A DNA stretch of 64,000 nucleotides from a virus (IMGVR_UViG_3300030332_001481:67486-131485), one strand, 5' to 3'. Shown: positions 2,315 to 41,000, counted from the first letter of the stretch. Made by a program: numbers and translations. Notes: generated by a model not told the origin, from the sequence alone.

Positions 2315-3283
2315 GTGGCGTTTACACATCAGTGTGGCCATTGCAATTCCGTCTTCGAGTCCGATCGAAAGACTTCAAAGTACTGTCAGCACCCCTGTGC
2401 TGTGGCGGCCCGGACGGCCGCACGTCAGGCAAAGAAAAAGACCGTCACCAAAGTATGCCCATGGTGTAGTGACGAGTTCTCAGTCCCTCAGACAATGATG
2501 GGGATGAGGAAGGCGTATTGTTCCCGTAAGTGCGCGTCAGCGGCTGTCGCGGCTAAGAGAAAGCTGGAGCCTCTTCGTACACCCTGTAAGGTGTGCAACG
2601 AAATCTTCGAGCATCCACGCACATCCCCCAACAGAGTGGTATGTGGGGAGGCGTGCAAGAACGAGCTGAAGCGGCAGCAGCACGCAGAGAAGCGTGCCCA
2701 GAAGGTTGCGGTCATGGCTCCTTGTGCTCATTGTGGGACTGACTTTGAGGTCATTCCTACCCGGAAAAAGTACTGCAGCAAGGCGTGCGCAAATCAGGCT
2801 ATTTGTGTGGACAAGAAGAGCCTAGCTACCCAGACGAAGACATGTAAGTGCATTCTCTGCGACTGCCAGGTGACGGTCACGAAGTACCACAAGAATTCTG
2901 TTGTGCTATGCAGCGAGCACGAGCAGATGCGCCGCCGGAAGAAGTACCGCAAGAGAGTGCTTCGCGACATGCTCACACATTTCGAGCAGCTGCCTGATGG
3001 CAGCTACGGTAAGTTTCTTGAGTTTGAGTGTTCGCCTCCGTACAGTGGGTACATGGCGGTCGCCATCAAGGCGAACAACTCGAATACTAGCATGTCACTC
3101 CTCACCATTGTTCTAGCCCACCAGAGCAGAAACCCGGACCGGGCTATCCTCCTTGACTACTCCCAGTTCCTTCTAGAGACCAAGCTAGGACGCCGTCTGT
3201 CGCCAGAGGAGTCCGTGGGTTTCGTCGACGGTGATTGGAAGAACTTCAACGTTCAAAATCTACGTGTCGAGTGCCACCTATAG
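2315..3283 (+). CDS. Cys-rich protein with repeated zinc-ribbon-like units and a degenerate HNH-like C-terminus
   Basis: Four repeats of K-Y-C-x2-3-C-A; C-terminal FVDGDWKNFNVQNLRVEC; GTG start with RBS TAGGAGGA upstream. Confidence 0.5.
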   Translation: MAFTHQCGHCNSVFESDRKTSKYCQHPCAVAARTAARQAKKKTVTKVCPWCSDEFSVPQTMMGMRKAYCSRKCASAAVAAKRKLEPLRTPCKVCNEIFEHPRTSPNRVVCGEACKNELKRQQHAEKRAQKVAVMAPCAHCGTDFEVIPTRKKYCSKACANQAICVDKKSLATQTKTCKCILCDCQVTVTKYHKNSVVLCSEHEQMRRRKKYRKRVLRDMLTHFEQLPDGSYGKFLEFECSPPYSGYMAVAIKANNSNTSMSLLTIVLAHQSRNPDRAILLDYSQFLLETKLGRRLSPEESVGFVDGDWKNFNVQNLRVECHL

Positions 3284-3290
3284 GTGTAGA

Positions 3291-3551
3291 ATGTCTACTG
3301 AAGCAACTGAAGCATATGCGAGATTCCGGAGACGGGTGGCTGAACATGTCAGCGCTTGGTTCGATTCCTTACCCGAGGACCAACGGGACCAGCTCATCGC
3401 TGGCATCGTGTCTCTTGATGGCTCAAACGTGACCCCACGTGAAGTCGTGAAAGAAATCCAGAACGGGACGGCCCTAGGGGACGCGCTGCTGGAGCAGGCG
3501 ATGACTCTTGCATCCTTGGACTCTTTTAGCTCCAACACCTGGAAGGCGTAA
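3291..3551 (+). CDS. hypothetical protein
   Basis: ATG-initiated 86-aa ORF between neighbouring genes. Confidence 0.4.
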   Translation: MSTEATEAYARFRRRVAEHVSAWFDSLPEDQRDQLIAGIVSLDGSNVTPREVVKEIQNGTALGDALLEQAMTLASLDSFSSNTWKA

Positions 3552-3562
3552 AGGTCCTAGTT

Positions 3563-4072
3563 ATGTCAGTAATGAAGCTACGGTACTACCCCGACCCCAT
3601 CCTCAACGCTCCAGTCGATGACGTGGAGACGTTTGACGACGACCTGTCCAAGTTCGTCATGGATATGGCTGAGACCCTCTATTCCACCAAGGTGGGAGTC
3701 GGACTCGCGGCACCACAGGTAGGCAGGAGCCTGAATCTCTTCATCATGGATGTGTCTGATCCGAACGAGCCTGACGAGCTTCATGTTCTGATCAACCCTA
3801 GCATCACAGCATCGTCTGACGCGATGCTGGTGGCGGAAGAGGGGTGCCTCTCTTTCCCTGGCGTCGTAGAGAAGGTTCGTCGTCACGTGTGGGTGGAGGT
3901 GGACTACCTCAATGAAGAAGGGGAGCCACAGTCCACGAGATTCGCAGGCCTTGCGGCTCACGTGGTGCAGCACGAGTACGACCACCTCCACGAGAAGACC
4001 CTGGCGGACCGCGTCTCCCGTCAGACGCGGAGAGGGATGCTCAAGCGGGTCAAGCGCGCTCTCAAGAAGTGA
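3563..4072 (+). CDS. def: peptide deformylase
   Basis: All three PDF motifs: GVGLAAPQVG, EGCLSFPG, HEYDHL. Confidence 0.85.
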   Translation: MSVMKLRYYPDPILNAPVDDVETFDDDLSKFVMDMAETLYSTKVGVGLAAPQVGRSLNLFIMDVSDPNEPDELHVLINPSITASSDAMLVAEEGCLSFPGVVEKVRRHVWVEVDYLNEEGEPQSTRFAGLAAHVVQHEYDHLHEKTLADRVSRQTRRGMLKRVKRALKK

Positions 4073-4145
4073 CCGCGCTTCTCGATCTTATCTGAAAGGT
4101 GAGAGCTAGCGCACACCGCGCCGGCTACAGCCTAGGATAAGATAG

Positions 4146-4487
4146 GTGAAGACGACAAAATCTGCGCGTAAGAAGAACATCGAAAACAAAAAGCGAGCCA
4201 TTGTTGAGTACCTCAGTCAATGCTCGTGCGAGGACTGCGGCGAGGCTGACCCGCTAGTACTTGAGTTCACCCGCTCAGTTGTCATCCCCTATAATCCACG
4301 ACTCCGACGCAAAGCACCCAAGAAGTCCGGCAATGGGATCTACGATCTCGTACAGTCTGACTGCAATATGGAAAAGCTACAGCAGGAGATGAAGAGTTGT
4401 TCAGTTGTGTGTTCTAACTGCGCCTCACGCAGGGATCACCGCAACGACCAGTCCTATCGGTGGAAGTATCTCCGCAAGAGTGCGTAG
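4146..4487 (+). CDS. Cys-rich hypothetical protein (possible degenerate HNH or zinc ribbon)
   Basis: CSCEDCGE ... CSVVCSNC motifs; GTG start. Confidence 0.4.
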   Translation: MKTTKSARKKNIENKKRAIVEYLSQCSCEDCGEADPLVLEFTRSVVIPYNPRLRRKAPKKSGNGIYDLVQSDCNMEKLQQEMKSCSVVCSNCASRRDHRNDQSYRWKYLRKSA

Positions 4488-13376: not shown

Positions 13377-13448
13377 TGACCCTGCGGAGACTCGAACTCC
13401 GTTCCAGAGGGTGAAAGCCTCTGATCCTAGCCTATAGACGACAGGGCC
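13377..13448 (-). tRNA. tRNA-Glu (anticodon TTC)
   Basis: Cloverleaf read by eye; anticodon loop CTTTCAC; T loop GAGTTCGAGTCTC; Glu-like D arm TCGTCTATAGGCTAGGA. Confidence 0.7.
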
Positions 13449-13450
13449 GT

Positions 13451-13523
13451 CGCTCCCACAGGGAGTTGAACCCTGGTTTCCCGGCTGAGAACCGGGTGTC
13501 CTTGGCCTCTAGACGATGGGAGC
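13451..13523 (-). tRNA. tRNA-Glu (anticodon CTC)
   Basis: Anticodon stem CCCGG/CCGGG with loop TTCTCAG; Glu-like D arm. Confidence 0.6.
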
Positions 13524-13527
13524 TTAG

Positions 13528-13610
13528 CGGAAGGAGGAGGAGTCGAACCCCTGTGTTTTACCACCTCCGGTGTTCAAAGCCGGCGGCCCACCACTGAGCC
13601 TTCACCTTCC
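13528..13610 (-). tRNA. tRNA-Ser (anticodon TGA), type II; imperfect
   Basis: Ser-like acceptor GGAAGG, long variable arm, loop TTTGAAC with a C.A mismatch at 31-39, T loop TTCGACT; U7.U66 mismatch. Confidence 0.5.
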
Positions 13611-13617
13611 TTACGAG

Positions 13618-13702
13618 CGGTAGTCGGAGGTCTCGATCCCCAGTGCCCTGCAGCACCGCTCCGATTAGCAATCGGGCTTGATCCCTGATCAATTCGACTA
13701 CC
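13618..13702 (-). tRNA. tRNA-Ser (anticodon GCT), type II
   Basis: Anticodon loop TTGCTAA, long variable arm, acceptor GGTAGTC/GACTACC. Confidence 0.6.
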
Positions 13703-13708
13703 AGAAAG

Positions 13709-13793
13709 TGGAAGGAGACGGAATCGAACCGCAACGCTGTTACACGTCCAGCCGCTTTCCAAGCGGTACCTATCCCAGATAGGATCACCTTCC
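13709..13793 (-). tRNA. tRNA-Ser (anticodon GGA), type II
   Basis: Anticodon loop TTGGAAA, long variable arm, T loop TTCGATT. Confidence 0.6.
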
Positions 13794-13973
13794 GAGCACT
13801 TGTTCTTGCTTTTGTGGTCCCGCTCAAGCTCCACTCCATCCAGAGTACCAGTCCAGACTTCGCTTCACAGCTTGACACTGCTTTGTCTTCAGGTGATCAA
13901 TCCTTCGCAACAACGCAGCGCCTCGGCTCTTTTGGTACCAGCCTCAGGCGGGTCCACAAAAGCAAGAACTAAA
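13794..13973 (-). other. 180-nt structured spacer inside the tRNA array, closed by 22-bp inverted repeats; no tRNA fold recognised
   Basis: CTTGTTCTTGCTTTTGTGGTCCCGC (13797-13821) pairs with GCGGGTCCACAAAAGCAAGAAC (13946-13967) across about 125 nt. Confidence 0.4.
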
Positions 13974-14046
13974 TCGGGGAGACCGGATTCGAACCGATGT
14001 CCCATGCTCCCAAAGCATGTGCTAAACCAGCCTCAGCTACACCCCG
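13974..14046 (-). tRNA. tRNA-Pro (anticodon TGG)
   Basis: Anticodon stem CATGC/GCATG with loop TTTGGGA; T arm ATCGG-TTCGAAT-CCGGT. Confidence 0.65.
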
Positions 14047-14078
14047 ATATTTGGCGGCCTTAGGGTGGCCGCCGACCC
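14047..14078 (-). terminator. GC hairpin just downstream of the minus-strand HNH gene (possible terminator)
   Basis: GGCGGCC-TTAGGGT-GGCCGCC hairpin followed on the minus strand by AAATAT. Confidence 0.3.
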
Positions 14079-14079
14079 T

Positions 14080-14643
14080 TTAGGAACCCTCGTCTAGAGT
14101 TCCGTGCCAGTAGCACCAGTTGGCCCACTGTTCAGGCAACGTCGATTGCGGATCGATGTGGAACCGCACCACGGGCAAGCTATTGGGCTTTACAGGCTTA
14201 CTGAGCAGCCGCATGTTTGCTTGAGCAGGGGTCTGGTTGCCCTTAGTGCTGTTGCACTTTTGGCATGCCATGACAATGTTCTCCCAGGTAGTCTTACCTC
14301 CCTGGGCCCTCGGAATTACGTGGTCGTAGGTGAGACGCTTAAGTGTGTGCTTCGTACCGCAGTACTGGCACCTGTACTTGTCTCGGGTGGCAACGTTGAT
14401 TCGAGAGAACTTGACGCTGCGGCGACGAGCCACTTTGCGCAGCAGACGAACTACTGCGGGCATTTTGATGGTAATAGAGATTGAGCGGATGTCTTCGTCG
14501 TACTCCTCCAAGATCTCTACCTTGCCTTGGAACAACATCGTCACCGCTCTCTGCCAAGAGACGACTCGATGAGGTGAGTACGACTGATCGAGCACGAGCG
14601 TCCTCATTTCAGTCTCCTGGTTAATCAAATAAGCTGTCACCAA
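14080..14643 (-). CDS. HNH endonuclease
   Basis: [44 protein letters not shown]. Confidence 0.75.
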
Positions 14644-14666
14644 CCCACCCTGTAAAGAGGTAAGCT

Positions 14667-15041
14667 ATGCGACCTATTCCGACTCTGAGTGGCACCTGCG
14701 TACAGTGCGAGCGATATACGATGGTCCACGACGACGACACGTGCGATGCGTGCGTATCCCGCATCCCGCCTCCCCCACGGAATCCAGGAAGGGTTCAAGT
14801 GATCCTGTCCTACACTTTCCTGGGGAGTCTTGGACTTGGGGTTTTAGCAGCCGTGCTGTACTGCTGCGCGGCCACCGTCCGGTGGGGCTTCGGCGAGCAG
14901 GTGAGCAGCCCAGCAGTATTTGGGCTTGTCATTTGGTTTGTGCTGTTCGTTGTATCCGTTGTATATGCAGCTGATGTAGTGTGTGCGCACCTGGGTAACT
15001 CTTCGAGAGAAGGCCGTGCCACTCGACCCAAAGAGTTCTGA
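14667..15041 (+). CDS. putative small membrane protein with an N-terminal zinc ribbon
   Basis: CVQCERY...CDAC, then two hydrophobic helices. Confidence 0.35.
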   Translation: MRPIPTLSGTCVQCERYTMVHDDDTCDACVSRIPPPPRNPGRVQVILSYTFLGSLGLGVLAAVLYCCAATVRWGFGEQVSSPAVFGLVIWFVLFVVSVVYAADVVCAHLGNSSREGRATRPKEF

Positions 15042-15042
15042 T

Positions 15043-15100
15043 GGTAGCCGCGGTCGGATTCGAACCGACACTGTTCCTGAAACTAGCGTCTGTTCTCAGA
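15043..15100 (-). other. tRNA 3'-half-like sequence (variable, T arm, acceptor 3' strand, encoded CCA) flanking the IS right end
   Basis: GTCGG-TTCGAAT-CCGAC-CGCGGCT-A-CCA; no matching 5' acceptor strand found nearby. Confidence 0.4.
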
Positions 15101-15236
15101 GTCTTACCTGACATTCTCATGCCGGTGCTCTGTTGACGCTTCACTCGGGCTGGTTTCGCCATCTGCCGTAAGGCAGTTGGCCAGAGCCTTCCCGTCCACG
15201 TCCTGCAACCGAGGAACCCCCGGCCGTAAGTTTATT
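15069..15236 (-). ncRNA. TnpB-associated omega RNA (right-end element RNA): scaffold 15090-15236 overlapping the tnpB 3' end, guide-like flank 15069-15089
   Basis: 147-nt block near-identical to a second copy at 29663-29809, with an internal GNRA-loop hairpin. Confidence 0.55.
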
Positions 15237-16321
15237 GCTGCGTTGAGGTCACGGTCACAGTTGAATCCGCAGACTTCGCAGTTGAAAGTTCGCTCACTGA
15301 GCGTTAGCGATCCATTTACGGCTCCACAAGAGGAGCACGTTTTTGACGACGGGTAAAATCGGTCATGCACGAATACTTCTGACCCGTACCACTTGGCCTT
15401 GTATTCGAGCTGCCTACGTACCTCAAAAAACGAAACGTCATGAATCGCCTTGGACAGCCGTCTGTTCTTTACCATACCACTGACATTGAGGTCTTCGATC
15501 CCAATGTGACCGTACGACTTAGACACGATAGACGTCATCTTGTGAAGTGCGTCTCTGCGCTGGCAAGAGATTCGGTAATACAGACGTGCAACCGCTGCCC
15601 TTTTTCTTTTGTACCTATTTGACCCCTTCACTGACCTGCTCAGTGACTGTTGGAGTCTTCTTAGTTTCCTTTCACTGTTTCTTAGTGCTCTAGGGTTAGA
15701 GAACACGGTTCCGTCAGACAGGGTTGCCAGTGTCTTTATTCCTAGGTCGACTCCGACCGAGTCTCCGTGGTTCTTGGGGACCTCGATGTCCTCCTCGACC
15801 TGGAATGAGACAAACCAGTGACCTGCCCTTTCAGATACCGTTGCAGATAGGATCCTGCCCTTGATTTTGGGCGTCTCTTTTAGCCTGATGCGTCCGAGTC
15901 TCGGGAGCTGAACATGCCGATCAAGTACCTTGATCACACCGTATAGCTTGAACGTGCCCAGGCCCTTCTTTTTACTCTTGAAGCGCGGAAATCTTGCCCT
16001 CTTCGAGAAGAAGTTGTCGTATGCTCGGTCCAGGTCGCGTAGTGCTTCCTGCATTGCACACTTGGACACCTCGTACATCCACGGGAACTCTGTCTTCTTG
16101 AGGGCATTGAGCTGCTTGTGCTGTGTCATCGCCTTGGATGACTTGTACTTAGGCAGTTCTTCCCCGGCGGCCTCCTTGGCCTTGTACTCAGCGTATTCGT
16201 CAATGCGGCGTCGAAGGCCCCAGTTAAAAGCGAAGCGCGCAGCACCACAATGGCGAACGAGATGTCCTCGTTGCTTGTTGTTAGGTCGCATCTCGACCTT
16301 GTAAGCGCGATTAATCCTCAT
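15104..16321 (-). CDS. tnpB: TnpB (OrfB) RNA-guided endonuclease of the IS200/IS605 family
   Basis: C-terminal RuvC-like split with zinc finger: SKTCSSCG...CEVCGFNCDRDLNAAINL; N-terminal region typical of OrfB. Confidence 0.85.
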   Translation of the reverse strand: MRINRAYKVEMRPNNKQRGHLVRHCGAARFAFNWGLRRRIDEYAEYKAKEAAGEELPKYKSSKAMTQHKQLNALKKTEFPWMYEVSKCAMQEALRDLDRAYDNFFSKRARFPRFKSKKKGLGTFKLYGVIKVLDRHVQLPRLGRIRLKETPKIKGRILSATVSERAGHWFVSFQVEEDIEVPKNHGDSVGVDLGIKTLATLSDGTVFSNPRALRNSERKLRRLQQSLSRSVKGSNRYKRKRAAVARLYYRISCQRRDALHKMTSIVSKSYGHIGIEDLNVSGMVKNRRLSKAIHDVSFFEVRRQLEYKAKWYGSEVFVHDRFYPSSKTCSSCGAVNGSLTLSERTFNCEVCGFNCDRDLNAAINLRPGVPRLQDVDGKALANCLTADGETSPSEASTEHRHENVR

Positions 16322-16350
16322 CACCTGAGGTACTCAGTTTACATGGTAAA

Positions 16351-16422
16351 CGTCCCCACGTGGATTCGAACCACGATTTTCGACTTAGGAGGTCGAAGTT
16401 CTATCCATTGAACTATAGGGAC
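16351..16422 (-). tRNA. tRNA-Arg (anticodon CCT)
   Basis: Anticodon stem TCGAC/GTCGA with loop CTCCTAA; T arm CGTGG-TTCGAAT-CCACG. Confidence 0.7.
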
Positions 16423-16428
16423 AACTAG

Positions 16429-16501
16429 CGATCGCGATAGGAATCGAACCTACAACCGCCCGGTTCGTAGCCGGGTGCTCATCCTGTTGAGCTTCGCGAT
16501 C
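16429..16501 (-). tRNA. tRNA-Arg (anticodon ACG)
   Basis: Anticodon stem CCCGG/CCGGG with loop CTACGAA; acceptor GATCGCG/CGCGATC. Confidence 0.75.
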
Positions 16502-16505
16502 CAAG

Positions 16506-16575
16506 AGGCGCAGGTGAGAATCGAACTCGACCTTCGCGGATTTGCAGTCCGCGTCCTTCCCAGAAGGACCGCGCC
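16506..16575 (-). tRNA. tRNA-Cys (anticodon GCA)
   Basis: Acceptor GGCGCGG, discriminator U, anticodon stem GCGGA/TCCGC with loop CTGCAAA; T stem imperfect. Confidence 0.55.
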
Positions 16576-16578
16576 GAA

Positions 16579-16650
16579 AGCGGGTAGTCGGAATCGAACC
16601 GACTTATCCAGGGTGGAAGCCTGGCGCATCGCCATCAATGCTTTACCCGC
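16579..16650 (-). tRNA. tRNA-Gly (anticodon TCC)
   Basis: Acceptor GCGGGTA/TACCCGC, anticodon stem CCAGG/CCTGG with loop CTTCCAC. Confidence 0.75.
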
Positions 16651-16656
16651 GAGAAG

Positions 16657-16740
16657 TGGGCCCTGATGGAATCGAACCACATAGCCAATTGGCACCTGTG
16701 TTACAGACAGGGGACCGTCCCAGCGATCTATTCAGAACCC
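16657..16740 (-). tRNA. tRNA-Tyr (anticodon GTA), type II; non-canonical 5' region
   Basis: Anticodon stem CCTGT/ACAGG with loop CTGTAAC, long variable arm; acceptor needs two G.U pairs; D region atypical. Confidence 0.45.
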
Positions 16741-16745
16741 GAAAG

Positions 16746-16818
16746 TGGAGCTGAGGGGAATCGAACCCCTGACCCCCTGTCTGCCAGACAGGTGCTCTCC
16801 CAACTGAGCTACAGCCCC
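16746..16818 (-). tRNA. tRNA-Ala (anticodon GGC)
   Basis: G3.U70 present; anticodon stem CCTGT/ACAGG with loop CTGGCAG. Confidence 0.75.
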
Positions 16819-16825
16819 AATTGTG

Positions 16826-16893
16826 TCGTTCGAGTGGGACTCGAACCCACGGCCTCTTGCATGCTAGCGCTCTCCCAGCTGAGCTACCGAACG
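16826..16893 (-). pseudogene. tRNA-like element with canonical D and T arms but a truncated anticodon/variable region; acceptor pairing extends to an 11-bp inverted repeat
   Basis: Only 17 nt (CTAGCATGCAAGAGGCC) lie between the D arm and the T arm, and no 5-bp/7-nt/5-bp arm can be drawn there. Confidence 0.35.
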
Positions 16894-16898
16894 ACACA

Positions 16899-16971
16899 TG
16901 TACCCGGACGGAATTGAACCGACATCCAGCGGACCACAACCGCGTGCTCTAGCCGTTGAGCTACAGGTACC
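16899..16971 (-). tRNA. tRNA-His (anticodon GTG) with genome-encoded G-1 and A73
   Basis: Anticodon loop TTGTGGT; an extra 5' G precedes the GTACCTG acceptor; discriminator A. Confidence 0.7.
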
Positions 16972-16975
16972 ACAA

Positions 16976-17048
16976 AGCTCCGAGCCGGACTCGAACCGGC
17001 CGTCTCCCACGTACCAAGCGGGTGAAGCGCCACCTCTTCTTTCGGAGC
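16976..17048 (-). tRNA. tRNA-Thr (anticodon GGT)
   Basis: Acceptor GCTCCGA/TCGGAGC, anticodon loop TTGGTAC. Confidence 0.7.
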
Positions 17049-17055
17049 AATACTA

Positions 17056-17127
17056 TTGGTCCACTGGGAATCGAACCCAGATTTCTCGCGTATCAGACGA
17101 GTGCCCTAACCATTAGACGATGGACCA
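17056..17127 (-). tRNA. tRNA-Ile (anticodon GAT)
   Basis: Anticodon stem CTCGT/GCGAG with loop CTGATAC; U1-A72. Confidence 0.7.
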
Positions 17128-17132
17128 GTGAG

Positions 17133-17215
17133 TGGTGGAGGAGGGACTCGAACCCACAATTCCCGAAGGAGCCGGATTTACAGTCCGGTGCCGCTACCTG
17201 TGCGACGTCTCCACC
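17133..17215 (-). tRNA. tRNA-Tyr (anticodon GTA), type II
   Basis: Anticodon stem CCGGA/TCCGG with loop CTGTAAA; long variable arm; acceptor GGTGGAG/CTCCACC. Confidence 0.7.
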
Positions 17216-17218
17216 CCA

Positions 17219-17291
17219 TGCTCGGAGTCGGAATTGAACCGACGACACCCTGATCTTCAATCAAGTGCTCTACCTGCTGAGCTATCCGAGC
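17219..17291 (-). tRNA. tRNA-Phe (anticodon GAA)
   Basis: Acceptor GCTCGGA/TCCGAGC, anticodon loop TTGAAGA; Phe-like overall. Confidence 0.75.
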
Positions 17292-17306
17292 CTGTAAAAT
17301 CAAGCC

Positions 17307-17567
17307 ATGACTGACTATTACGACTTTGAGTTTCCCGTGAAGCTCGATCGAAGCAGAACATCAATAGATGTTCTCACTCCGCTGAACGAGATGCATGGGT
17401 ACGTCCCGTCCTGGGATCCAGTAGACCAACAGTCTGACCATGTCAGAGCAGTCCGGACCGCGAAGGCCCAGCTCAACTCCAGCTACATCGGGGCCTTCCG
17501 CCTCCACAAGGACGGCACCATTACTCTACGGTCCCTACGGGAATCGAACCCGCCCACACCTGGATGA
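17307..17567 (+). CDS. possible small protein (MTDYYDF N-terminus) in the gap between tRNAs; 3' end overlaps tRNA-Asp on the opposite strand
   Basis: ATGACTGAC start typical of this genome; 230-nt tRNA-free gap. Confidence 0.3.
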   Translation: MTDYYDFEFPVKLDRSRTSIDVLTPLNEMHGYVPSWDPVDQQSDHVRAVRTAKAQLNSSYIGAFRLHKDGTITLRSLRESNPPTPG

Positions 17568-17601
17568 CAACCAGGCTGCCTTCCCAGCAGCATCAAGGAC
17601 C
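17529..17601 (-). tRNA. tRNA-Asp (anticodon GTC)
   Basis: Anticodon stem CCTGG/CCAGG with loop TTGTCAT; T arm GCGGG-TTCGATT-CCCGT; discriminator G. Confidence 0.7.
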
Positions 17602-17604
17602 TAA

Positions 17605-17676
17605 CAGGCCACCGAGGAATCGAACCCCGCAGACGGTCGGATTTGGAGTCCAACCCGGTTACCCAGACCGTGACCT
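17605..17676 (-). tRNA. tRNA-Trp (anticodon CCA); atypical D arm and 7-nt variable loop
   Basis: A1-U72, anticodon loop CTCCAAA. Confidence 0.55.
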
Positions 17677-17680
17677 ATGA

Positions 17681-17751
17681 TGGAGGCGGTAGGAATCGAA
17701 CCGTACTACCCTACTGGATACCATCCAGTGCTCGCCTTGAGCTTCACCTCC
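17681..17751 (-). tRNA. tRNA-like gene; anticodon uncertain (possibly GGT); irregular T region
   Basis: Acceptor GGAGGTG/CGCCTCC, GGTTCGATTCC T-loop signature, hairpin ACTGG-ATGGTAT-CCAGT. Confidence 0.35.
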
Positions 17752-17755
17752 ATAG

Positions 17756-17831
17756 CTGGCCCCCTGGGACTCGAACCCAGAACCCTTCCGTTAACAGCGG
17801 AATGCTCTAACCAAAATTGAGCTAGGGACCA
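17756..17831 (-). tRNA. tRNA-Asn (anticodon GTT)
   Basis: U1-A72, anticodon stem TTCCG/CGGAA with loop CTGTTAA. Confidence 0.7.
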
Positions 17832-29030: not shown

Positions 29031-29246
29031 GTTGACTACTCCATATTTCGTGTTATATGGTGAGGACGATGCTGTTGACCCCGCACAAGCAAACGACACA
29101 GGCGACATTAGTCACTGTGCAGGCCTGCGCGAAGCGAGTCCAGCAAGTCAAAGGCTAGCAGCCAGTAGGTGCCTCCCGAAGAGGTCGTTTCTCTCCACCG
29201 CTGGCTGCGTGCTAACCCTGACCACACTAGGGTGGGTGGCAGGTAA

Positions 29247-29319
29247 GGGACCTTAGCTCAGCGGCTAGAGCATTCGGCCTTTAACCGAGCGGTCGTGGGT
29301 TCGAATCCCACAGGTCCTA
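29247..29319 (+). tRNA. tRNA-Lys (anticodon TTT) with an unusual C33
   Basis: Anticodon stem TTCGG/CCGAG with loop CCTTTAA; T arm GTGGG-TTCGAAT-CCCAC. Confidence 0.55.
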
Positions 29320-29323
29320 ATAC

Positions 29324-29397
29324 GGGTCGCTAGCTCAACTGGTAGTAGCAGCGGATTCTTAATCCGCCGGTTCGGGGTTCAAGTCCCCGGCGACCCA
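29324..29397 (+). tRNA. tRNA-Lys (anticodon CTT)
   Basis: Acceptor GGGTCGC/GCGACCC, anticodon stem GCGGA/TCCGC with loop TTCTTAA. Confidence 0.75.
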
Positions 29398-29453
29398 TTA
29401 CTCTACCCTGTAAAGGGTAGGTACCTGAAAACTAAATCGAGAAGCAAAAATGA

Positions 29454-29526
29454 TCGGGCGTAGTTCAGTTGGTAGAACGACGGCTTCTGGCGCCGTATGT
29501 CGGGGGTTCGATTCCTCCCGCCCGTA
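29454..29526 (+). tRNA. tRNA-Gln (anticodon CTG); positions 1 and 72 are unpaired (U.U)
   Basis: Anticodon stem ACGGC/GCCGT with loop TTCTGGC; acceptor TCGGGCG/CGCCCGT. Confidence 0.6.
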
Positions 29527-29576
29527 TGACACAGGTTGCTCTACACCTACTAAAGTAGAGACGAGACAAGTAGAGA

Positions 29577-29660
29577 GGGGACGTGGCGGAATAGGCAGAC
29601 GCAGGAGACTCAAAATCTCCCGATCGAGAGGTTGTGTGGGTTCGATCCCCACCGTCCCCA
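29577..29660 (+). tRNA. tRNA-Leu (anticodon CAA), type II
   Basis: Acceptor GGGGACG/CGTCCCC, anticodon stem GGAGA/TCTCC with loop CTCAAAA, long variable arm. Confidence 0.75.
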
Positions 29661-29662
29661 CT

Positions 29663-29829
29663 AATAAACTTACGGCCGGGGGTTCCTCGGTTGCAGGACG
29701 TGGACGGGAAGGCTCTGGCCAACTGCCTTACGGCAGATGGCGAAACCAGCCCGAGTGAAGCGTCAACAGATCACCCACACGTGAGTGTGGGGTAAGGCTC
29801 TGAGAACAGTGTAACGGATGAGCTGGATG
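29663..29829 (+). ncRNA. solo omega-RNA-like right-end fragment of an IS605-family element (last ~38 tnpB codons plus scaffold), immediately upstream of tRNA-Val
   Basis: About 105 nt identical to the tnpB 3' end, then a divergent hairpin with compensatory changes (CCCACAC-GTGA-GTGTGGG here, GGCAT-GAGA-ATGTC in copy 1), then the conserved GGTAAG.CTCTGAGAACAG and a unique 20-nt flank. Confidence 0.55.
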
Positions 29830-29897
29830 GATAGCTCAGTTGGTAGAGCGCTGGTTTTACACACCAGTGGTCGTCGGTTCGATCCCGGCTCCATCCA
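29825..29897 (+). tRNA. tRNA-Val (anticodon TAC)
   Basis: Acceptor GGATGGA/TCCATCC, anticodon stem CTGGT/ACCAG with loop TTTACAC. Confidence 0.8.
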
Positions 29898-29983
29898 TAG
29901 GTAGATAGCCTGGCTATACGCAGGTCTACCCGGACAATTAGCGTATAGGTTCGGGGTGGCGCGGACACACAACTGCCACACTC

Positions 29984-30059
29984 GGGGCCTTAGCTCAGTT
30001 GGGAGAGCTCCGGCTTTGCACGCCGGGTATTTGCGAGGGTTCGATTCCCTCAGGCTCCA
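29984..30059 (+). tRNA. tRNA-Ala (anticodon TGC)
   Basis: G3.U70, anticodon stem CCGGC/GCCGG with loop TTTGCAC. Confidence 0.7.
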
Positions 30060-30068
30060 TAAAACCCT

Positions 30069-30854
30069 TTAGTATGATTTGCCTTCGGCGTATCTCTGAC
30101 GGCGGTAGTGTCTGCCTTTACCCCTGTTTTTGCCCTTGTACGTGTCTGTAAGTGCGTGGCAGTTTGAACAGATCAATCTTAGGTTCTCATCCCTATGATC
30201 ATAGGGATCCCCATTGATATGGTCAGCTTCTAGTGGAATATCCACTCCCTGCCACTTCTTTCTGCGGCAGACGTCACATCGTAACGGCCGAGTGTGTAGT
30301 AAATAGTTCCGTAAAGTGCTCGCGGACGGATTACCTTTGCGCACACTTGAAAACGTTCTGTGCAGTGCACTGCACGTACGCGAGCAGAACTTACTAACTG
30401 GAAGTGCTTCGTACGTTGTCCCGCACTGGTTGCACTCCTTGAGGATAATCTTCTTCACCCGCTTAGGGTATTTACTGTTATTGATAGTTGCTGCACAGCT
30501 TTGAGAGCAATAACGCCTGTTATTCGCAGGTAAATCCATGAACTCTGTGCCGCAGTTTCCACAATTTATTGGCGTGCTCTTGCTCCCTCTTATTCTGGAG
30601 ACCAGAATTCCATTATTCTGTGCCCAGACACGAACTGCATTCGCAGATCTTCCTAGTTCGGTGCCAACTTCTTTGTGGGTGGCACCCTTCCGCAATAGGG
30701 AGGCTGCCTTTTCCTTGTCTTCCGTTGTCCATTTTCGCATTATTACGTGCCCAAGTAAGTTAACAGGTAAACTGCGGCCTTTGTACCGCCGATAAGACAG
30801 TTCGAGTCTGTCCTTGGGCTTCAGATAACTCGATGACAGCTGTTTCGCGTCCAA
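30069..30854 (-). CDS. HNH endonuclease with an N-terminal HTH-like region
   Basis: CDVCRRK...EADHINGDPYDHRDENLRLICSNCH. Confidence 0.75.
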   Translation of the reverse strand: MDAKQLSSSYLKPKDRLELSYRRYKGRSLPVNLLGHVIMRKWTTEDKEKAASLLRKGATHKEVGTELGRSANAVRVWAQNNGILVSRIRGSKSTPINCGNCGTEFMDLPANNRRYCSQSCAATINNSKYPKRVKKIILKECNQCGTTYEALPVSKFCSRTCSALHRTFSSVRKGNPSASTLRNYLLHTRPLRCDVCRRKKWQGVDIPLEADHINGDPYDHRDENLRLICSNCHALTDTYKGKNRGKGRHYRRQRYAEGKSY

Positions 30855-30882
30855 TGCGCAGCTGGATCGATAAATGAGATGT

Positions 30883-30955
30883 TCGGGCTTAGTTCAGTTG
30901 GTAGAACGCCAGGTTTTGGTTCTGGATGTCGGGGGTTCAAATCCCTCAGCCCGTG
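30883..30955 (+). tRNA. tRNA-Gln (anticodon TTG); positions 1 and 72 are unpaired (U.U)
   Basis: Anticodon stem CCAGG/TCTGG with loop TTTTGGT; same body as the tRNA at 29454. Confidence 0.6.
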
Positions 30956-31033
30956 TGAAATAGGTCGCTCTATACCTATAAGTATAGACAAGTCCCTCCG
31001 CCCGTTTCAAAACAGGAAGGAAAGGTAGAACTC

Positions 31034-36113: not shown

Positions 36114-36240
36114 TTCGCCGTCCTGTCTGAGCCTGTCGACCTCATAGGACGCTACTTGGCCTTACCCGCCTCTCCCCTGCCCTAGGATATGGCCTAAGAA
36201 CTCGTTAGTTATGGACTAAACCGTGAGTTCACGAGGGGCC

Positions 36241-39200
36241 ATGCCTAGACTTCAAATTCGAAACCTTACGCGCCAGAGGATCTCCCTGACTCCTCGGGTC
36301 ATTCAGATCCTACGCCCTCTGGAGATTTTGGTTACAGACGTAACTGTGGCTGATCTTGAGGCACTGAGGGCTAGCCTGCAGCAGCACAGAGATCTTGGAT
36401 TGATCACGTATGGGGTTGACTCTTCTGACTCCTTCGCTGACACCGAATTCGTCACACAGCAAGACCTTCTCGATGGTGATTTCATCGAAAGTGCGCGGGC
36501 TGCTACCATTGCGAACCTGACCTTATCAGGGCCACAGACCGTGGATGGGGTGGCTCTTACTCCTGGAGATAGGGTCTTGGTGAAGGACCAAGCGTCGCCT
36601 GCGGAGAACGGCGTTTACATTGTGGCAGAAGGATCGTGGACCAGGTCCTCCAACACGCTTTCTGCAGGCACCCTTCTAGGTGTGAACGAAGGCACCACAC
36701 AAGCAGACACGGTGTGGAAGGTAACCACCGACGGTGAAATCGTTAGCGGCACCACTGCTACTGACTTTAGTCAGGTCACCGGAGGGGGCGGTGGGGGTGG
36801 CGGAGCTGTTAGCTCTGTTTTTAGCCGCACTGGCGCGGTAGTAGCCACGGCAGGAGACTATGACGCGAGCGAAGTAACCTTCGCGCCCGACGGCGATATT
36901 GCCGCTACCACCGTCCAAGCCGCAATCGCAGAAGTACGGGACGATACAGATACCAAGCTAACCGCTAAGGTAACCGGACCTGCAGGCGCTAGTGATAATG
37001 CTCTAGCTCGCTACGACGGCGCTACGGGCCGGCTGGTACAGAACTCAGTTGTGCTGGTTGGAGATACCGGAGCAGTCACAGGTGTAGCTTCAGTAGATCT
37101 TGACCTTGCTGCGGCACCAGCCCATACCGAAGGGCGCCTGTTTTACGACCAAGATGAGCACTGCCTGGCCATCTATAATGACCAGGCAGCAGTTACTCAC
37201 CAGCCAGGACAAGAAGGGCTAATTCGTGTCTACAATGGCACGGGGAGCCCTATTGCGGATGGTACTCCAGTCTACATCGCTGGAGTGCAGCTTGAAGCCG
37301 GCATCGCTCGTCCTTCGGTTGGATTGGCTCAAGCCAACGCGGTAACGACTGCGAGGGTCATTGGGCTGACTACTCAAACTATTGCCAGTGGCTCCTATGG
37401 GTACGTTACCAGTTGGGGACATATAAATGACCTTGACTTGAGTGCGTTCTCTTCAGGGGATGAGCTGTGGCTCAGTGATTCAACCCCTGGTACCTACATC
37501 AACACACCTCCCGCTGTGGGTAACTACGTCGTTCAGCTTGGTTGGGTCACAAACGCGTCACTAACTGGGCGGTTGCTTGTGTCCCTGAACGCGGAGCTGT
37601 CCGAGCAGGAAGGCGTTGCAGCCTCTGCTCCTACTGGTGTTCTTAATGGTGGTGCACTTAGCATAAACGCCAACCCTGCACAGTTTGATGTCACAGCTGG
37701 CAGTGGCGTGATTGTTGATGCCGTCACAGACCCAGAGCATGCCACGATCACCCGAGTGACCTGGTCTGCCTCCTCCGCGAACGCTGTTACGAATCTCGCA
37801 ACCACTGCGTTTACTTGGGTAGGCGTGAATAGTGCTGGCACTCTTATTCAGATTTCAGATCGTGCGCCAACGCCCATCGAAGCTCGTACCACTATTTGGC
37901 TAGGCCGCCTTGGTCACCCTAATAACACCGCTATTTTAGGTGTGGCCAACCGGCCGTTTACCGCAGTACAGACTTCCTTGGGCATACTGGATATCGCGAG
38001 GTCCCTTGGGCCCTTCAATGTCTCTGGGAACGTCTACTCCGCCAACGGTGCAAACCTTAACATCGACCGGAGCGCAGGGACCACGTTCCTCTACGGATCT
38101 AACTTCCAGACAGATAGCAGACAGCCACATCAGATTGATTTCCTTACGGACATCGCTGTTGACTTGGCCTATCGCTATCGCAACGGCAGTGGCGGTTGGA
38201 TTAGTGGTGCCACACGCACGACTATCGACCCAGGACAGTGGGATAACGGTAGTGGAGTACTACAATCTGTATCCCCCGCAGGCAACCGTTGGACAATCCA
38301 GCGTATTCAGTTTTCTACTATCGATGCCACTGTCATCTATTACGGGCAAGTGCAGTACAACTCTCGGGAGGCTGCTTTAGCTGCTATTGAAGATGCTACA
38401 GAAGTAGATCCTGCGCTTGAAGAGACCATCACCCGAGGGTGGTTGGTCGTGCGTGGTGATGCTACTAACCTGAGTGATCCCACACAAGCAACGTTCGTAT
38501 CAGCGGGTAATGGTCCCGGTTCGGCCCAAGTGGCCGGAACAGTTACCGGAGTTACGGATCACGGTGCCCTGGAAGCCAGCTCTCTTTTAGATGATGATCA
38601 TCCGCAATACCTACTAGCAGATGGGAGTCGTAGCCTTTCAGGTGACCTAGATGCAGGCGGTAATGAGATTCAGAACGCCAGCAACCTGTTGAATCTCTAC
38701 CGTGGAGTTCGAGGATTTACCACTGGCAACTACTTAGAGCGTGCTGCGGGCAGTGCGCTGAACGGCAACGCTACGGCTTTTGAGTTCATGGTCGCTGTCT
38801 TAGCGGATAGTCTAGAGGGAGCCTCTGGGTTACGTGAGCTGGTGTCCTGCACCGAACAGTTCATTGGGCCAGGGTATAGCGCAGGGCTTGATGGCGTGCG
38901 CCCTAAGCTTCTGTGTACCGATGGCGGGGGAACTCGCTTTGAAAACTTCACGGGTTTCTGGCACCGTAATAGTGGTGGCAAGCTGTTGACTATCCTGCAT
39001 GGAGGCTATGACGGAACTACTCGTTTCTTGTACCTGAATGGGGTATTGTTCTACTCCGCCTCGCAAACAGGGTACAGTGTAGGCACTCGTCCCTTCCGCC
39101 TTGGAGCTAACGCTGGTGCAACGCCAAACAGCCCTGCCAGTGGGCTAACATTCCTTGGCTTTGCCTTCAAGAGCAATGGCGCCCTAACAAGCACGCAGCG

Positions 39201-39726
39201 TGAAGAAAGTATCCGTACTTTCCTTACTACAAGAACCTTCAGTGGATCACTTTTCACGAGCGGGTACTCGGGGGCTTCTTTAGCTCCAGGAGCTATGCCA
39301 GCTTCCTGGGCTGACGAGATTGGCAGCTTGGACCTCACACTAGTAGGGTCACTGACCGTTGTGGATGACGCTGCCGCAGGCGTGGCGCTGACACAGTTCC
39401 CGGGCCCCGACAGTATTGCAACTGTCAGTGGTAACGCCCTGGTGCGGCCTTTCCAAACTGTGGCTGTGGCAGGGCCTACGACAGTGTCGTCAGGTGTTGT
39501 CTTCTGTGATACAGCTGCCGCAACTATTGCTCTCACCCTTCCCTCTTTTCCTGCATCTGGAACTGAGTACTTCATTGTAGACAATGCCGGTAACGCCGCG
39601 GTCAACAACATCACTGTTAACCGCGCAGGATCCCAGCTGATCAACGGGGCAACTACCGCTACCGTGGCATCTAACTACGGGTCCTTGTCGTTGATCTACG
39701 ACGGCACTAACTGGACTATCCTGTGA
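36241..39726 (+). CDS. large tail fibre-like protein (~1160 aa) with the shared N-terminal anchor domain and a poly-Gly linker
   Basis: N-terminus MPRLQIRNL...VTVADLEAL...LITYGVD; GGGGGGGG tract; Gly/Ser/Thr/Asn-rich. Confidence 0.65.
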   Translation: MPRLQIRNLTRQRISLTPRVIQILRPLEILVTDVTVADLEALRASLQQHRDLGLITYGVDSSDSFADTEFVTQQDLLDGDFIESARAATIANLTLSGPQTVDGVALTPGDRVLVKDQASPAENGVYIVAEGSWTRSSNTLSAGTLLGVNEGTTQADTVWKVTTDGEIVSGTTATDFSQVTGGGGGGGGAVSSVFSRTGAVVATAGDYDASEVTFAPDGDIAATTVQAAIAEVRDDTDTKLTAKVTGPAGASDNALARYDGATGRLVQNSVVLVGDTGAVTGVASVDLDLAAAPAHTEGRLFYDQDEHCLAIYNDQAAVTHQPGQEGLIRVYNGTGSPIADGTPVYIAGVQLEAGIARPSVGLAQANAVTTARVIGLTTQTIASGSYGYVTSWGHINDLDLSAFSSGDELWLSDSTPGTYINTPPAVGNYVVQLGWVTNASLTGRLLVSLNAELSEQEGVAASAPTGVLNGGALSINANPAQFDVTAGSGVIVDAVTDPEHATITRVTWSASSANAVTNLATTAFTWVGVNSAGTLIQISDRAPTPIEARTTIWLGRLGHPNNTAILGVANRPFTAVQTSLGILDIARSLGPFNVSGNVYSANGANLNIDRSAGTTFLYGSNFQTDSRQPHQIDFLTDIAVDLAYRYRNGSGGWISGATRTTIDPGQWDNGSGVLQSVSPAGNRWTIQRIQFSTIDATVIYYGQVQYNSREAALAAIEDATEVDPALEETITRGWLVVRGDATNLSDPTQATFVSAGNGPGSAQVAGTVTGVTDHGALEASSLLDDDHPQYLLADGSRSLSGDLDAGGNEIQNASNLLNLYRGVRGFTTGNYLERAAGSALNGNATAFEFMVAVLADSLEGASGLRELVSCTEQFIGPGYSAGLDGVRPKLLCTDGGGTRFENFTGFWHRNSGGKLLTILHGGYDGTTRFLYLNGVLFYSASQTGYSVGTRPFRLGANAGATPNSPASGLTFLGFAFKSNGALTSTQREESIRTFLTTRTFSGSLFTSGYSGASLAPGAMPASWADEIGSLDLTLVGSLTVVDDAAAGVALTQFPGPDSIATVSGNALVRPFQTVAVAGPTTVSSGVVFCDTAAATIALTLPSFPASGTEYFIVDNAGNAAVNNITVNRAGSQLINGATTATVASNYGSLSLIYDGTNWTIL

Positions 39727-41000
39727 CATTTGACAGGGACTTTCGGGTACTCTCTCGTTCAACTACGACGGGTGTACTCTCGGGCGGGTTACTTGCCTCT
39801 ACAGCATCTCCCACTGCGTTCATGGTAAACGCCGGAGTCGGGGTTATCGTAGACGATTACACATTTCCATTGAATCCTACAATCACTAGAGTTGAATGGG
39901 ATGCACTGGAAGTAGAAGTGGAGGCGATTAGCAGTGCAACTGTTACTGAGGTAGCCATTGCTAGTAATGGTATGGTGATTCAGCAGCAGTCTCCTTTCAC
40001 AGAGGCGCAACATCAAGAGCTGATAGTGCTGGGACGCGTTGTACACTCCGACCTCGCCACAGTGACACTTGTCCTTCCACGGCCGGATCTTGCTTTTGGT
40101 TTGACGAGTGACGTACAGGACTTTATCGCTGCACTAGGTACATTTAACGTAGCGGGCAACACGTTCGGGCCTGCGGCAAATGATCTGACCTTGAGTAAGT
40201 CTAGCGGTAAATCTTGGCGCAAGAACATCAATGCAGCAGTCTCCCCTCAGATACCATCTATTACCAACGATCCTGCTATAGTTAGTGTGCCTTTTCGCTA
40301 CACATATCGAGACGGTACTGGCGGCTGGACTCGTTTCGATGGGGGAGGAGCCTCCCGCACAGCCGTCGTCCCAAACTTGTGGGACGACGGCTCAGGCACG
40401 CTACAAACAGTACCTAACCGACGCTGGTCTATTCAGCCCATTTTCTTCTTTCCCGGGTCTAACGGTGTTTTTATCCAGTTTGGTCAGGAGGTGTACAACA
40501 ACTTAAGCCGTGCCCTCTCTCACGTAGCCCTAGGCGCTCTTGTAGACCCAAATCTACACGAGTCAACCCAAAGAGCTTGGCTAGTAGTGCGAGGGGATGC
40601 TACCGACCTGAGTAGTGCAAATCACGCGCAGTTTGTTTCCTCAGGCAGGTTTGGCATACATGCATCTGGGGGTGCCTTGGATGTGTTAAACATTGGAACT
40701 ACCGTCACGAACATAGCTACAGCTGGCACAACCTTCTTGGACGAAGTAACTAACGAAGTTCTAGTTTTAGTAGATGCTACGCTTGGAGCCGTAACAGCCA
40801 GCCTCCCAGCCCCCTCCAGTAAAAACGAAGGGCACAAAGTCATTGTAAAGGACGAGGTAGGCTTAGCTTCAGTTCTGCAACCGATCACTGTTCAAGTCAC
40901 AGGCGGTAGTTTGATCTCGGGCGTGCTTACTTCGTTGCTGACTAGCGCCTACCAATCTAGTACTTTCATTTCTGACGGGTCTAGTTGGCACGCTGTTTAG
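39723..41000 (+). CDS. tail fibre module, paralog of the central region of the preceding gene
   Basis: RAWLVVRGDATDLSS...QFVSSG and YRDGTGGW...WDDGSGTLQTV...WSIQPI align with segments of 36241-39726; ATGA-type overlap. Confidence 0.6.
   Translation: MTFDRDFRVLSRSTTTGVLSGGLLASTASPTAFMVNAGVGVIVDDYTFPLNPTITRVEWDALEVEVEAISSATVTEVAIASNGMVIQQQSPFTEAQHQELIVLGRVVHSDLATVTLVLPRPDLAFGLTSDVQDFIAALGTFNVAGNTFGPAANDLTLSKSSGKSWRKNINAAVSPQIPSITNDPAIVSVPFRYTYRDGTGGWTRFDGGGASRTAVVPNLWDDGSGTLQTVPNRRWSIQPIFFFPGSNGVFIQFGQEVYNNLSRALSHVALGALVDPNLHESTQRAWLVVRGDATDLSSANHAQFVSSGRFGIHASGGALDVLNIGTTVTNIATAGTTFLDEVTNEVLVLVDATLGAVTASLPAPSSKNEGHKVIVKDEVGLASVLQPITVQVTGGSLISGVLTSLLTSAYQSSTFISDGSSWHAV

Follow-up and report, generated by a model that had tools for sequence, protein, structure and literature searches.

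A complete tnpB-less omega-RNA scaffold in a phage tRNA array as a possible second guide for the resident TnpB

Omega-RNA scaffolds that stand alone, with neither an effector nor a transposase gene beside them, have been described (Altae-Tran 2021, PMC10691335), and stand-alone omega RNAs, there of the PATE-like kind, are also reported by Meers (bioRxiv 10.1101/2023.03.14.532601). They function in trans when a compatible effector is present (PMC10691335, citing Altae-Tran 2021). The locus considered here, hereafter copy 2, lies in a window of 64,000 nt (the whole stretch of DNA analysed) from a huge marine phage. It resembles those cases in that a full predicted scaffold lacks an adjacent effector or transposase, and in that a compatible TnpB is encoded elsewhere in the genome, an arrangement that would add a guide without duplication of the nuclease gene. 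On the other hand, the known stand-alone omega RNAs are mobilised and bounded by both transposon ends, whereas copy 2 lacks a left end as well as its own promoter; unlike them, it fills a spacer between phage tRNA genes, its predicted guide abutting the 5' end of a tRNA. While the stand-alone omega RNA is known, its setting within a phage tRNA operon, without left end or own promoter, is new.

The predicted RNA is similar to that of ISDra2, as seen by cryo-EM (PMC10097598), in several respects: the scaffold (about 116-134 nt) overlaps the dispensable C-terminal tail of TnpB, the final stem (stem 4 of ISDra2) precedes the pseudoknot strand, and the pseudoknot forms between the stem 1 loop and the bases immediately 5' of the guide. 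The two differ in sequence and in transposon family, the clade in the window being IS607-associated, with a stem 1 loop of only 5 nt. In IS607 tnpB elements and IStrons (Zedaveinyte, bioRxiv 10.1101/2023.11.20.567912) the guide likewise follows directly after the element end, which reads ...GAACGG in most relatives; the window differs from them by the lack of tnpA, a terminal AG, the phage tRNA array and the second, gene-less scaffold. The Rfam family RF03015 shares with both window copies, over their 3' third, the GAAGCG..AAC motif, the outer stem, a GNRA-capped inner hairpin and GUAAGAC; the second hairpin of that model is absent from the window copies.

In phage T4, the homing endonuclease SegB promotes the spread of the T4 tRNA region (PMC2330249, cited in PMC13565253). 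The likeness lies in a nuclease system placed in a phage tRNA cluster, whose inheritance it could bias; the difference is that SegB recognises DNA through protein, and homing at copy 2 is a proposal only. The biological roles of stand-alone omega RNAs and of phage TnpB are the question that the copy 2 locus could help to address. Polycistronic tRNA-guide RNA arrays, in which guides are flanked by tRNAs and released by processing enzymes, are engineered; copy 2 would likewise place a guide RNA between tRNAs, and differs from these man-made arrays in that its release via tRNA processing is what we propose.

Phage setting and the resident tnpB element

The window derives from a 388.5-kb Tara Oceans contig, which we assign to a phage because of its tail-fibre proteins (36223-41000) and HNH endonucleases. 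Two tRNA arrays are present (Table 1), and since each of them holds one HNH gene, both appear to be collecting points for homing-type elements. Two additional matches to the Rfam tRNA model score above its threshold and are absent from the ARAGORN output (16826-16893, minus strand, 47.6 bits, and 17681-17751, minus strand, 36.2 bits), the latter overlapping the tRNA-Trp called by ARAGORN at 17606-17685. A tRNA with the anticodon CTA (63394-63469, plus strand; 56.8 bits with the Rfam tRNA model) is labelled tRNA-Pyl by ARAGORN; it may act as an amber suppressor, a hint that in this huge phage stop codons are reassigned or late genes recoded.

Megablast against 50,697 phage records retrieved no relatives of either tRNA-array region, and no close relatives of the phage were found in the phage records or IMG/VR. 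All other contigs carrying these genes are 99.6-100% identical to the window, and the sequence of copy 2 is identical across three independent Tara assemblies; strain-level contigs of this kind (99.8-100% identical) carry no information on the conservation of copy 2. A scan of JGI metagenomes gave a single match, a contig (L091) that covers the copy 1 locus of a strain variant at 99.6% identity. A search for synteny via the neighbouring Band_7 protein led to relatives with 49-60% identity that are non-syntenic and without a tRNA array, and no diverged phage relatives spanning the copy 2 locus were found.

The resident tnpB is the single full copy in the window, the only other tblastn match being the fragment within copy 2. 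Its product aligns with ISDra2 TnpB (E = 1e-63) so that D192, E and D358 correspond to D191, E278 and D361, and by this alignment the catalytic RuvC triad is predicted to be intact. The nearest TnpB proteins (57-64% identical) are metagenomic, and the named relatives (~55% identical) belong to Asgard archaea. In a 60%-identical homologue (P0007, of the element L175/L176), the nearest one to bear a tnpA, an overlapping upstream gene encodes a MerR-HTH/resolvase protein, i.e. a serine-recombinase tnpA, in place of the Y1 TnpA that recognises a subterminal imperfect palindrome at IS200/IS605 right ends. Because of this gene and of ends with a GG/AG core, the element is best classified as IS607-type, and its clade, judged from sequence, as IS607-associated rather than classical IS605 with TnpA hairpins, the family whose right-end models an earlier note on this DNA had suggested for a search. 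Neither a serine recombinase nor a tnpA was found in the window itself (best tblastn match E = 0.036).

The element ends were placed by homology. L175 and L176, two insertions of one element, are shared through ...GGAGAACGG(T) and divergent after it, and the right-end boundary in the window was therefore set at 15090 for copy 1 and 29809 for copy 2. The terminal dinucleotide is that of ...AACGG in most relatives and of ...AACAG in the window copies, L003 and L103. The 24 nt preceding the tnpB start codon (16322-16345, minus strand; CATGTAAACTGAGTACCTCAGGTG), a 24-mer unique in the window, contain a CTGAG-TAC-CTCAG hairpin and a segment, GTAAACTGAGTAC, resembling the right-end sequence GTAAGACTCTGAGAAC (15090-15108, minus strand); they may represent a short left end.

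The right end of copy 1 adjoins a tRNA without its 5' third, the anticodon arm, T arm, 3' acceptor strand and CCA being kept. In the strain variant L091 (JGI Ga0208790_1009240, 99.6% identical) the corresponding fragment matches positions 12-71 of 71 of the Rfam tRNA model (27.7 bits, E = 2e-4); tRNA-like flanks were assessed by this covariance model, free-energy folding being uninformative. L091 retains 5 nt (ACTAG, near window position 15075) that complete the anticodon stem of the fragment and are absent from the window, and it has a 1-nt deletion in a T run (window position 15430) that frameshifts tnpB, giving the proteins P0122 and P0123. The window strain has an intact tnpB and a more decayed tRNA fragment than L091. 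The nuclease is thus not universally maintained.

Table 1. Coordinates of the features discussed (window positions unless another contig is named)
Feature	Position	Strand	Remarks
tRNA array 1	13377-17831	-	ARAGORN, Rfam
HNH endonuclease gene, array 1	14080-14643	-	PHROGs E = 6e-41
Copy 1 flank	15042-15089	-	Predicted guide ACGCTAGTTTCAGGAACAGT = 15070-15089; runs into 5'-truncated tRNA
Copy 1, predicted omega-RNA scaffold	15090-15236	-	Overlaps tnpB 3' end and right end
tnpB	15104-16321	-	405 aa; Pfam OrfB_IS605, Cas12f1-like_TNB, HTH_OrfB_IS605
Candidate left end	16322-16350	-	29 nt, from tRNA-Arg(CCT) to tnpB start codon: TTTACCATGTAAACTGAGTACCTCAGGTG
tRNA array 2	29247-30956	+	ARAGORN, Rfam; orientation opposite to array 1
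tRNA-Leu(CAA)	29577-29661	+	ARAGORN, Rfam; 3' end 1-2 nt before copy 2
Copy 2, predicted solo omega-RNA scaffold	29663-29809	+	13 nt former tnpB coding plus complete predicted scaffold; ends ...CTGAGAACAG
Stem 1	29676-29690	+	CCGGG-GGTTC-CTCGG; covaries in 18 and 29 homologues, 98% of cells paired
Pseudoknot 5' strand	29682-29685	+	GTTC, loop of stem 1
Outer stem	29767-29771 with 29798-29802	+	All five pairs covary; encloses variable hairpin and conserved GTAAG
Retained tnpB TAA stop	29790-29792	+	Inside the 29767-29802 region
Pseudoknot 3' strand	29804-29807	+	GAAC, two bases before boundary 29809
Predicted guide of copy 2	29810-29829	+	TGTAACGGATGAGC then TGGATG; 14 nt spacer and 6 nt tRNA-Val start
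tRNA-Val(TAC)	29824-29898	+	ARAGORN; Rfam 71.2 bits; begins 14 nt past right end
HNH endonuclease gene, array 2	30069-30740	-	PHROGs E = 7e-22
Gene-less scaffolds, L195 (IMGVR_UViG_3300037714_000278)	3224-4364	-
Gene-less scaffold, L189	3894-4033
Gene-less scaffold, L199	48-187
Gene-less scaffolds, L194	9455-9607 and 11565-11670
Gene-less scaffolds, L196, L200, L201, L197
Right end fused to truncated tRNA, window	15042-15089	-
Right end fused to truncated tRNA, L091	1452-1504
Right ends fused to truncated tRNAs, L195	3157-3223 and 3599-3648	-

The two scaffold copies compared

Copy 2 aligns with the reverse complement of copy 1 over 147 nt with no gaps and 9 mismatches (93.9% identity, by alignment and BLAST), at positions 109, 114, 115, 118, 120, 123, 127, 128 and 135, as expected of the gene-less right-end/omega-RNA copy of the resident tnpB element that the earlier note had proposed. 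All nine fall within 27 nt around one hairpin (P about 5e-6 for nine random sites clustering in such a span), the remaining 108 nt upstream and 12 nt downstream being unchanged; the ~105 nt of identity to the tnpB 3' end initially noticed are in fact 108 nt. Copy 2 lacks a left end, its homology beginning inside former tnpB coding sequence. As had been read, it still carries the tnpB frame with the TAA stop (in tblastn, 29664-29789 align at 90% identity with TnpB residues 363-404). Only two sites in the window, one in each copy, have the terminal block TAAG(G/A)CTCTGAGAACAG. Past ...CTGAGAACAG the copies are unrelated, copy 1 continuing into ACGCTAGTTTCAGGAACAGT and copy 2, again as described before, into the unique flank TGTAACGGATGAGC and tRNA-Val. 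The predicted guide segments begin where the copies part, directly after ...GAGAACAG, the equivalent point in L175/L176.

The hairpin differs in sequence between the copies and is paired in both, in agreement with the first description of the locus: CCCACAC-GTGA-GTGTGGG in copy 2 (29774-29791) forms 7/7 pairs, and CCGGCAT-GAGA-ATGTCAGG in the same register of copy 1 forms 6/7, each with a GNRA loop. Two base pairs are exchanged with full compensation (G-C to C-G, U-A to C-G). The other differences comprise a G.U to A-U change, a change that closes a C.A mismatch or is located in a bulge, a loop change that retains GNRA (GAGA to GUGA), and an adjacent pair of changes by which G109-C136 is lost and C110-G135 gained. 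Eight of the nine lie in the region enclosed by the outer stem and fit the structure, and the ninth (G109U) makes the closing pair of this stem a U.C mismatch in copy 2. Nine random substitutions in the span would keep all 7/7 stem pairs with P = 0.006, and the GNRA loop as well with P = 0.0014. All nine differences are thus structurally neutral or compensated (P about 0.001-0.006).

Neutral drift matching the divergence of the hairpin would predict many changes in the first 108 nt (~18, an estimate rather than a computed test), and since there are none, the comparison rules out simple decay as the origin of copy 2. The compensatory changes had been taken to indicate selection on RNA structure; this holds for some time in the lineage, albeit it does not prove a current function of copy 2, because the changes could have come from a sister element. 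The pattern leaves two readings, constraint acting on the copy 2 scaffold, or a young copy whose hairpin module was taken over from a sister element.

Several particular origins were considered and set aside. Neither copying of the copy 2 hairpin from elsewhere in the window nor a single template switch fits, as there is no other copy and both arms differ. A left end at copy 2, or a deletion via a shared TAAACT, is contradicted by the upstream bases, which do not agree with those at the copy 1 left end. It is also improbable that an old diverged relic was overwritten by gene conversion, since the identity extends to the very edge of the homology.

Covariation of the RNA fold across the family

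Past DRDxNAAxN, the last motif conserved in the protein, the homologues of the element keep a conserved nucleotide sequence. In the family, the order of elements is stem 1 (CCGNN-NGUUN-NNCGG), a central region, GAAGC..AAC, the outer stem with the variable hairpin, GUAAGU, and (A/G)GAAC(G/A)G. In a MAFFT alignment of 18 sequences, 97% of cells in stem 1 and the outer stem were paired and 44 cells were changed on both sides; 0/500 shuffles reached the observed values, and slid controls were 34-61% paired. A model-guided alignment of 29 sequences, which added the base of the inner hairpin, gave 95% paired cells and 113 double-sided changes. The inner hairpin is present in every homologue (14-45 nt), and its base covaries. 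The pseudoknot GUUC/GAAC is paired in 100% of cells, its fourth pair covarying as CG/GC/UG/UA. Overall, covariation in the family extends to all three helices as well as the pseudoknot, and the helices are real. For the earlier note, simple decay lacking covariation in other genomes would have counted against its reading; across homologues the variable hairpin is a real covarying helix.

A covariance model (R1) was built from 16 homologues, with the window sequences left out, and used to search the window with filters off. It returned exactly two matches in the 64 kb, both full length: copy 1 (65.7 bits, E = 3e-13) and copy 2 (61.9 bits, E = 2e-12; model positions 1-156). The suggested check with covariance models was thus borne out by R1 for both copies. 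It was not by Rfam RF03015 (Transposase-2 RNA), which matched only below its gathering threshold of 42.7, copy 1 scoring 28.2 bits and copy 2 scoring 21.7 bits. Among 12 homologous loci, too, the best RF03015 score was 32.5 bits, at one locus only. Weak resemblances to RAGATH-32 and RAGATH-18 in Rfam were discounted.

By this model, copy 2 holds the entire predicted scaffold, from the first base of stem 1 through 29809 and with both pseudoknot partners, plus 13 nt, so that the initial designation as a fragment has to be withdrawn. In ISDra2 the scaffold begins with stem 1 at -116, further 5' sequence being dispensable, and positions -5..-3 of the omega RNA pair with the stem 1 loop (PMC10097598). 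The truncation of copy 2, 13 nt before stem 1, would therefore have kept almost exactly the functional unit. The counterpart of the divergent hairpin, stem 4 of ISDra2, is contacted by TnpB mainly via the backbone (PMC10097598), and the hairpin sequence is for this reason probably free to vary. Such a scaffold position, tolerant of any sequence, could be useful in engineering.

Possible roles of copy 2 and the occurrence of solo scaffolds elsewhere

Copy 2 is, as far as can be read from its sequence, a complete omega-RNA scaffold without tnpB and left end, placed in tRNA array 2 and co-oriented with its tRNAs. We propose, with a probability of about 0.5, that it serves as a trans-acting spare guide scaffold for the phage's own TnpB. 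Copy 2 would be transcribed within the tRNA precursor, its RNA ends arising through tRNA processing behind tRNA-Leu and ahead of tRNA-Val, through 5' trimming by TnpB, or through both; TnpB is able to trim its own RNA at this side (PMC10278001; PMC10097598). The only TnpB, whose RuvC residues are intact by alignment and whose gene lies 13.3 kb away, would then take up the product in trans and so gain a second specificity, TGTAACGGATGAGC(TGGATG) beside a suitable adjacent motif. A consensus scan placed a promoter-like site (29032-29061) ahead of array 2 and none belonging to copy 2 itself; between that site and copy 2 it gave a single terminator-like site on the plus strand, at 29171, before the first tRNA. 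With no promoter of its own and no terminator-like site from the first tRNA to copy 2, the tRNA precursor is the simplest RNA route, and expression of copy 2 would depend on read-through of the tRNA operon. A cut by RNase P at 29823/29824 would leave a 14-nt guide, a borderline length: 10-nt guides bind without cleaving, and 16-20 nt are used experimentally (PMC13507860; PMC10097598).

The predicted target sequences are TGTAACGGATGAGCTGGATG for the copy 2 guide and ACGCTAGTTTCAGGAACTAG for that of copy 1, and the target of the former would be the uninterrupted Leu-Val spacer of related phages. Cutting of a co-infecting relative, followed by recombinational repair, would then spread the copy 2 locus with the neighbouring tRNA genes, much as SegB does. 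No target of the copy 2 guide or match to it was found in the window or IMG/VR, and IMG/VR pattern scans (right end plus any hairpin, the copy 2 guide, and the tRNA-like flank of copy 1) gave no match. A likeness of the copy 2 guide to the guide of L195 copy B (15/18) was put down to chance, 4/20 shuffles reaching 15. The locus makes a compact test case, with one TnpB predicted to be intact, two scaffolds distinguished only by a hairpin that is neutral for structure, two different guides, and specific RNA ends predicted from the tRNA operon. If copy 2 is active, a transposon nuclease gains targets without duplication of its gene, tRNA processing becomes a natural mechanism of guide release, and phage tRNA clusters become arenas of RNA-guided homing; if it is inert, it is just a young IS remnant.

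That last outcome is the one we would regard as a real, albeit somewhat improbable, alternative: copy 2 would stem from a second insertion or from a chimera with a sister element, would have lost everything upstream of -147 and would now serve as a passive tRNA spacer, the hairpin differences having arisen while the sister element was active and copy 2 being too young for further decay. The family does evolve as a mosaic (the 3' modules of L174 and L175 are identical and their upstream parts different), copy 2 has no left end, own promoter or identifiable target, the window contains no tnpA, one strain (L091) already has a broken tnpB, the tRNA fragment adjoining copy 1 shows visible decay in that strains differ there by a 5-nt indel, and selfish elements in the form of the HNH genes collect in both tRNA arrays. 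Yet such an origin calls for two coincidences, a deletion end that spares exactly the full scaffold (an end placed at random in a ~1.25-kb element would do so in a few percent of cases) and zero substitutions at 120 constrained positions. Moreover, the R1 score of copy 2 is on a par with that of the active-looking copy 1, and other phages also carry full-length solo scaffolds, in part with promoters dedicated to them, something that debris would not be expected to show. Between a functional stand-alone guide and a relic, the first is favoured only moderately.

Two readings at the level of DNA seem improbable to us. Copies 1 and 2 form a 108-nt perfect inverted repeat (15129-15236, minus strand, and 29663-29770, plus strand, 14.4 kb apart) that might act as a recombination partner, driving inversion or gene conversion and so swapping the hairpin-plus-guide module at tnpB; the identity would then be kept by recombination and not by RNA function. 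Logan unitigs do end inside the repeat, at 29692 and 29741, but breaks of this kind are the outcome of any repeat, all long contigs show a single orientation with no inverted isomer seen, and identity up to the left edge of the homology is unattainable by converting an old diverged copy. Slightly less probable still is a mini-transposon or recombinase site, in which an IS607 serine recombinase, acting on an internal pseudo-left-end (AA followed by TAAACTTACGG) and the right end, would have made an omega-RNA-only circle, and copy 2 could still be mobilised in trans. L175 does have GG followed by TAAACTTGCG at the same internal position, its true left end being GG followed by GTAACAAGC, and the stand-alone omega RNAs described so far are 'evidently mobilized' (PMC10691335). 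The motif similarity is, however, short and lies within a protein-constrained codon stretch; the window, as noted above, encodes no serine recombinase, R1 finds only one such copy in the 64 kb, and a second copy with the same left boundary was not found.

A role of copy 2 as a spare guide can also be viewed against the family at large. A motif scan of IMG/VR yielded 16 loci, in which R1 finds 22 scaffolds, about half of them (~11/22) without a tnpB running into them; gene-less scaffolds of the copy 2 family are common in viral contigs. A TnpB scan (L007), which required exact peptide words, returned none of the contigs with solo scaffolds as carrying a cognate tnpB. The contig L195 has four scaffolds in tandem within 1.2 kb, spaced by 96-290 nt, and each of its complete scaffolds is preceded by a promoter-like TTGACA-17-TAT(A/T)AT, ~12 nt ahead of stem 1, while the 3' flanks differ from one scaffold to the next. 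Copy D of this contig is fused to a tRNA-Thr from tRNA position 4 (Rfam tRNA model 4-67, 46.6 bits), and copy C adjoins a tRNA-Ala-like anticodon arm, as read by eye. Since right ends are in this way fused to truncated tRNA genes (Table 1), the predicted guides would be segments of tRNA genes. The link of the family to phage tRNA clusters and the solo scaffolds with promoters raise the prior for a use of copy 2, albeit they prove nothing at this locus.

On a wider and decidedly speculative view, which we think unlikely, phages with tRNA clusters may run TnpB as a multi-guide system, in which one nuclease and several gene-less omega-RNA units would be used to cut and convert the tRNA regions of competitors. 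Expression of these units would rely on promoters of their own (L195, L189) or on the tRNA operon (the window), and in many cases the guides would correspond to parts of tRNA genes or of the spacers between tRNAs. If true, such a system would parallel SegB, with RNA as the guide, and would form a natural step on the way from single-guide transposon nucleases to CRISPR-like guide arrays.

In L174 (2550-2690) and L175 (2547-2684) the last ~45 nt, with the outer stem, hairpin and terminus, are identical, and the upstream parts differ; this mirror image of the pattern in the window suggests modular exchange within the omega RNA, as far as the sequences go. Relatives of tnpB (45-53% identical) also lie in co-oriented tRNA arrays (L003, 2889-4245; L010; L186, 9816-11393), and in L003 the tnpB start follows tRNA-His by 38 nt, mirroring the 29-nt gap after tRNA-Arg in the window.
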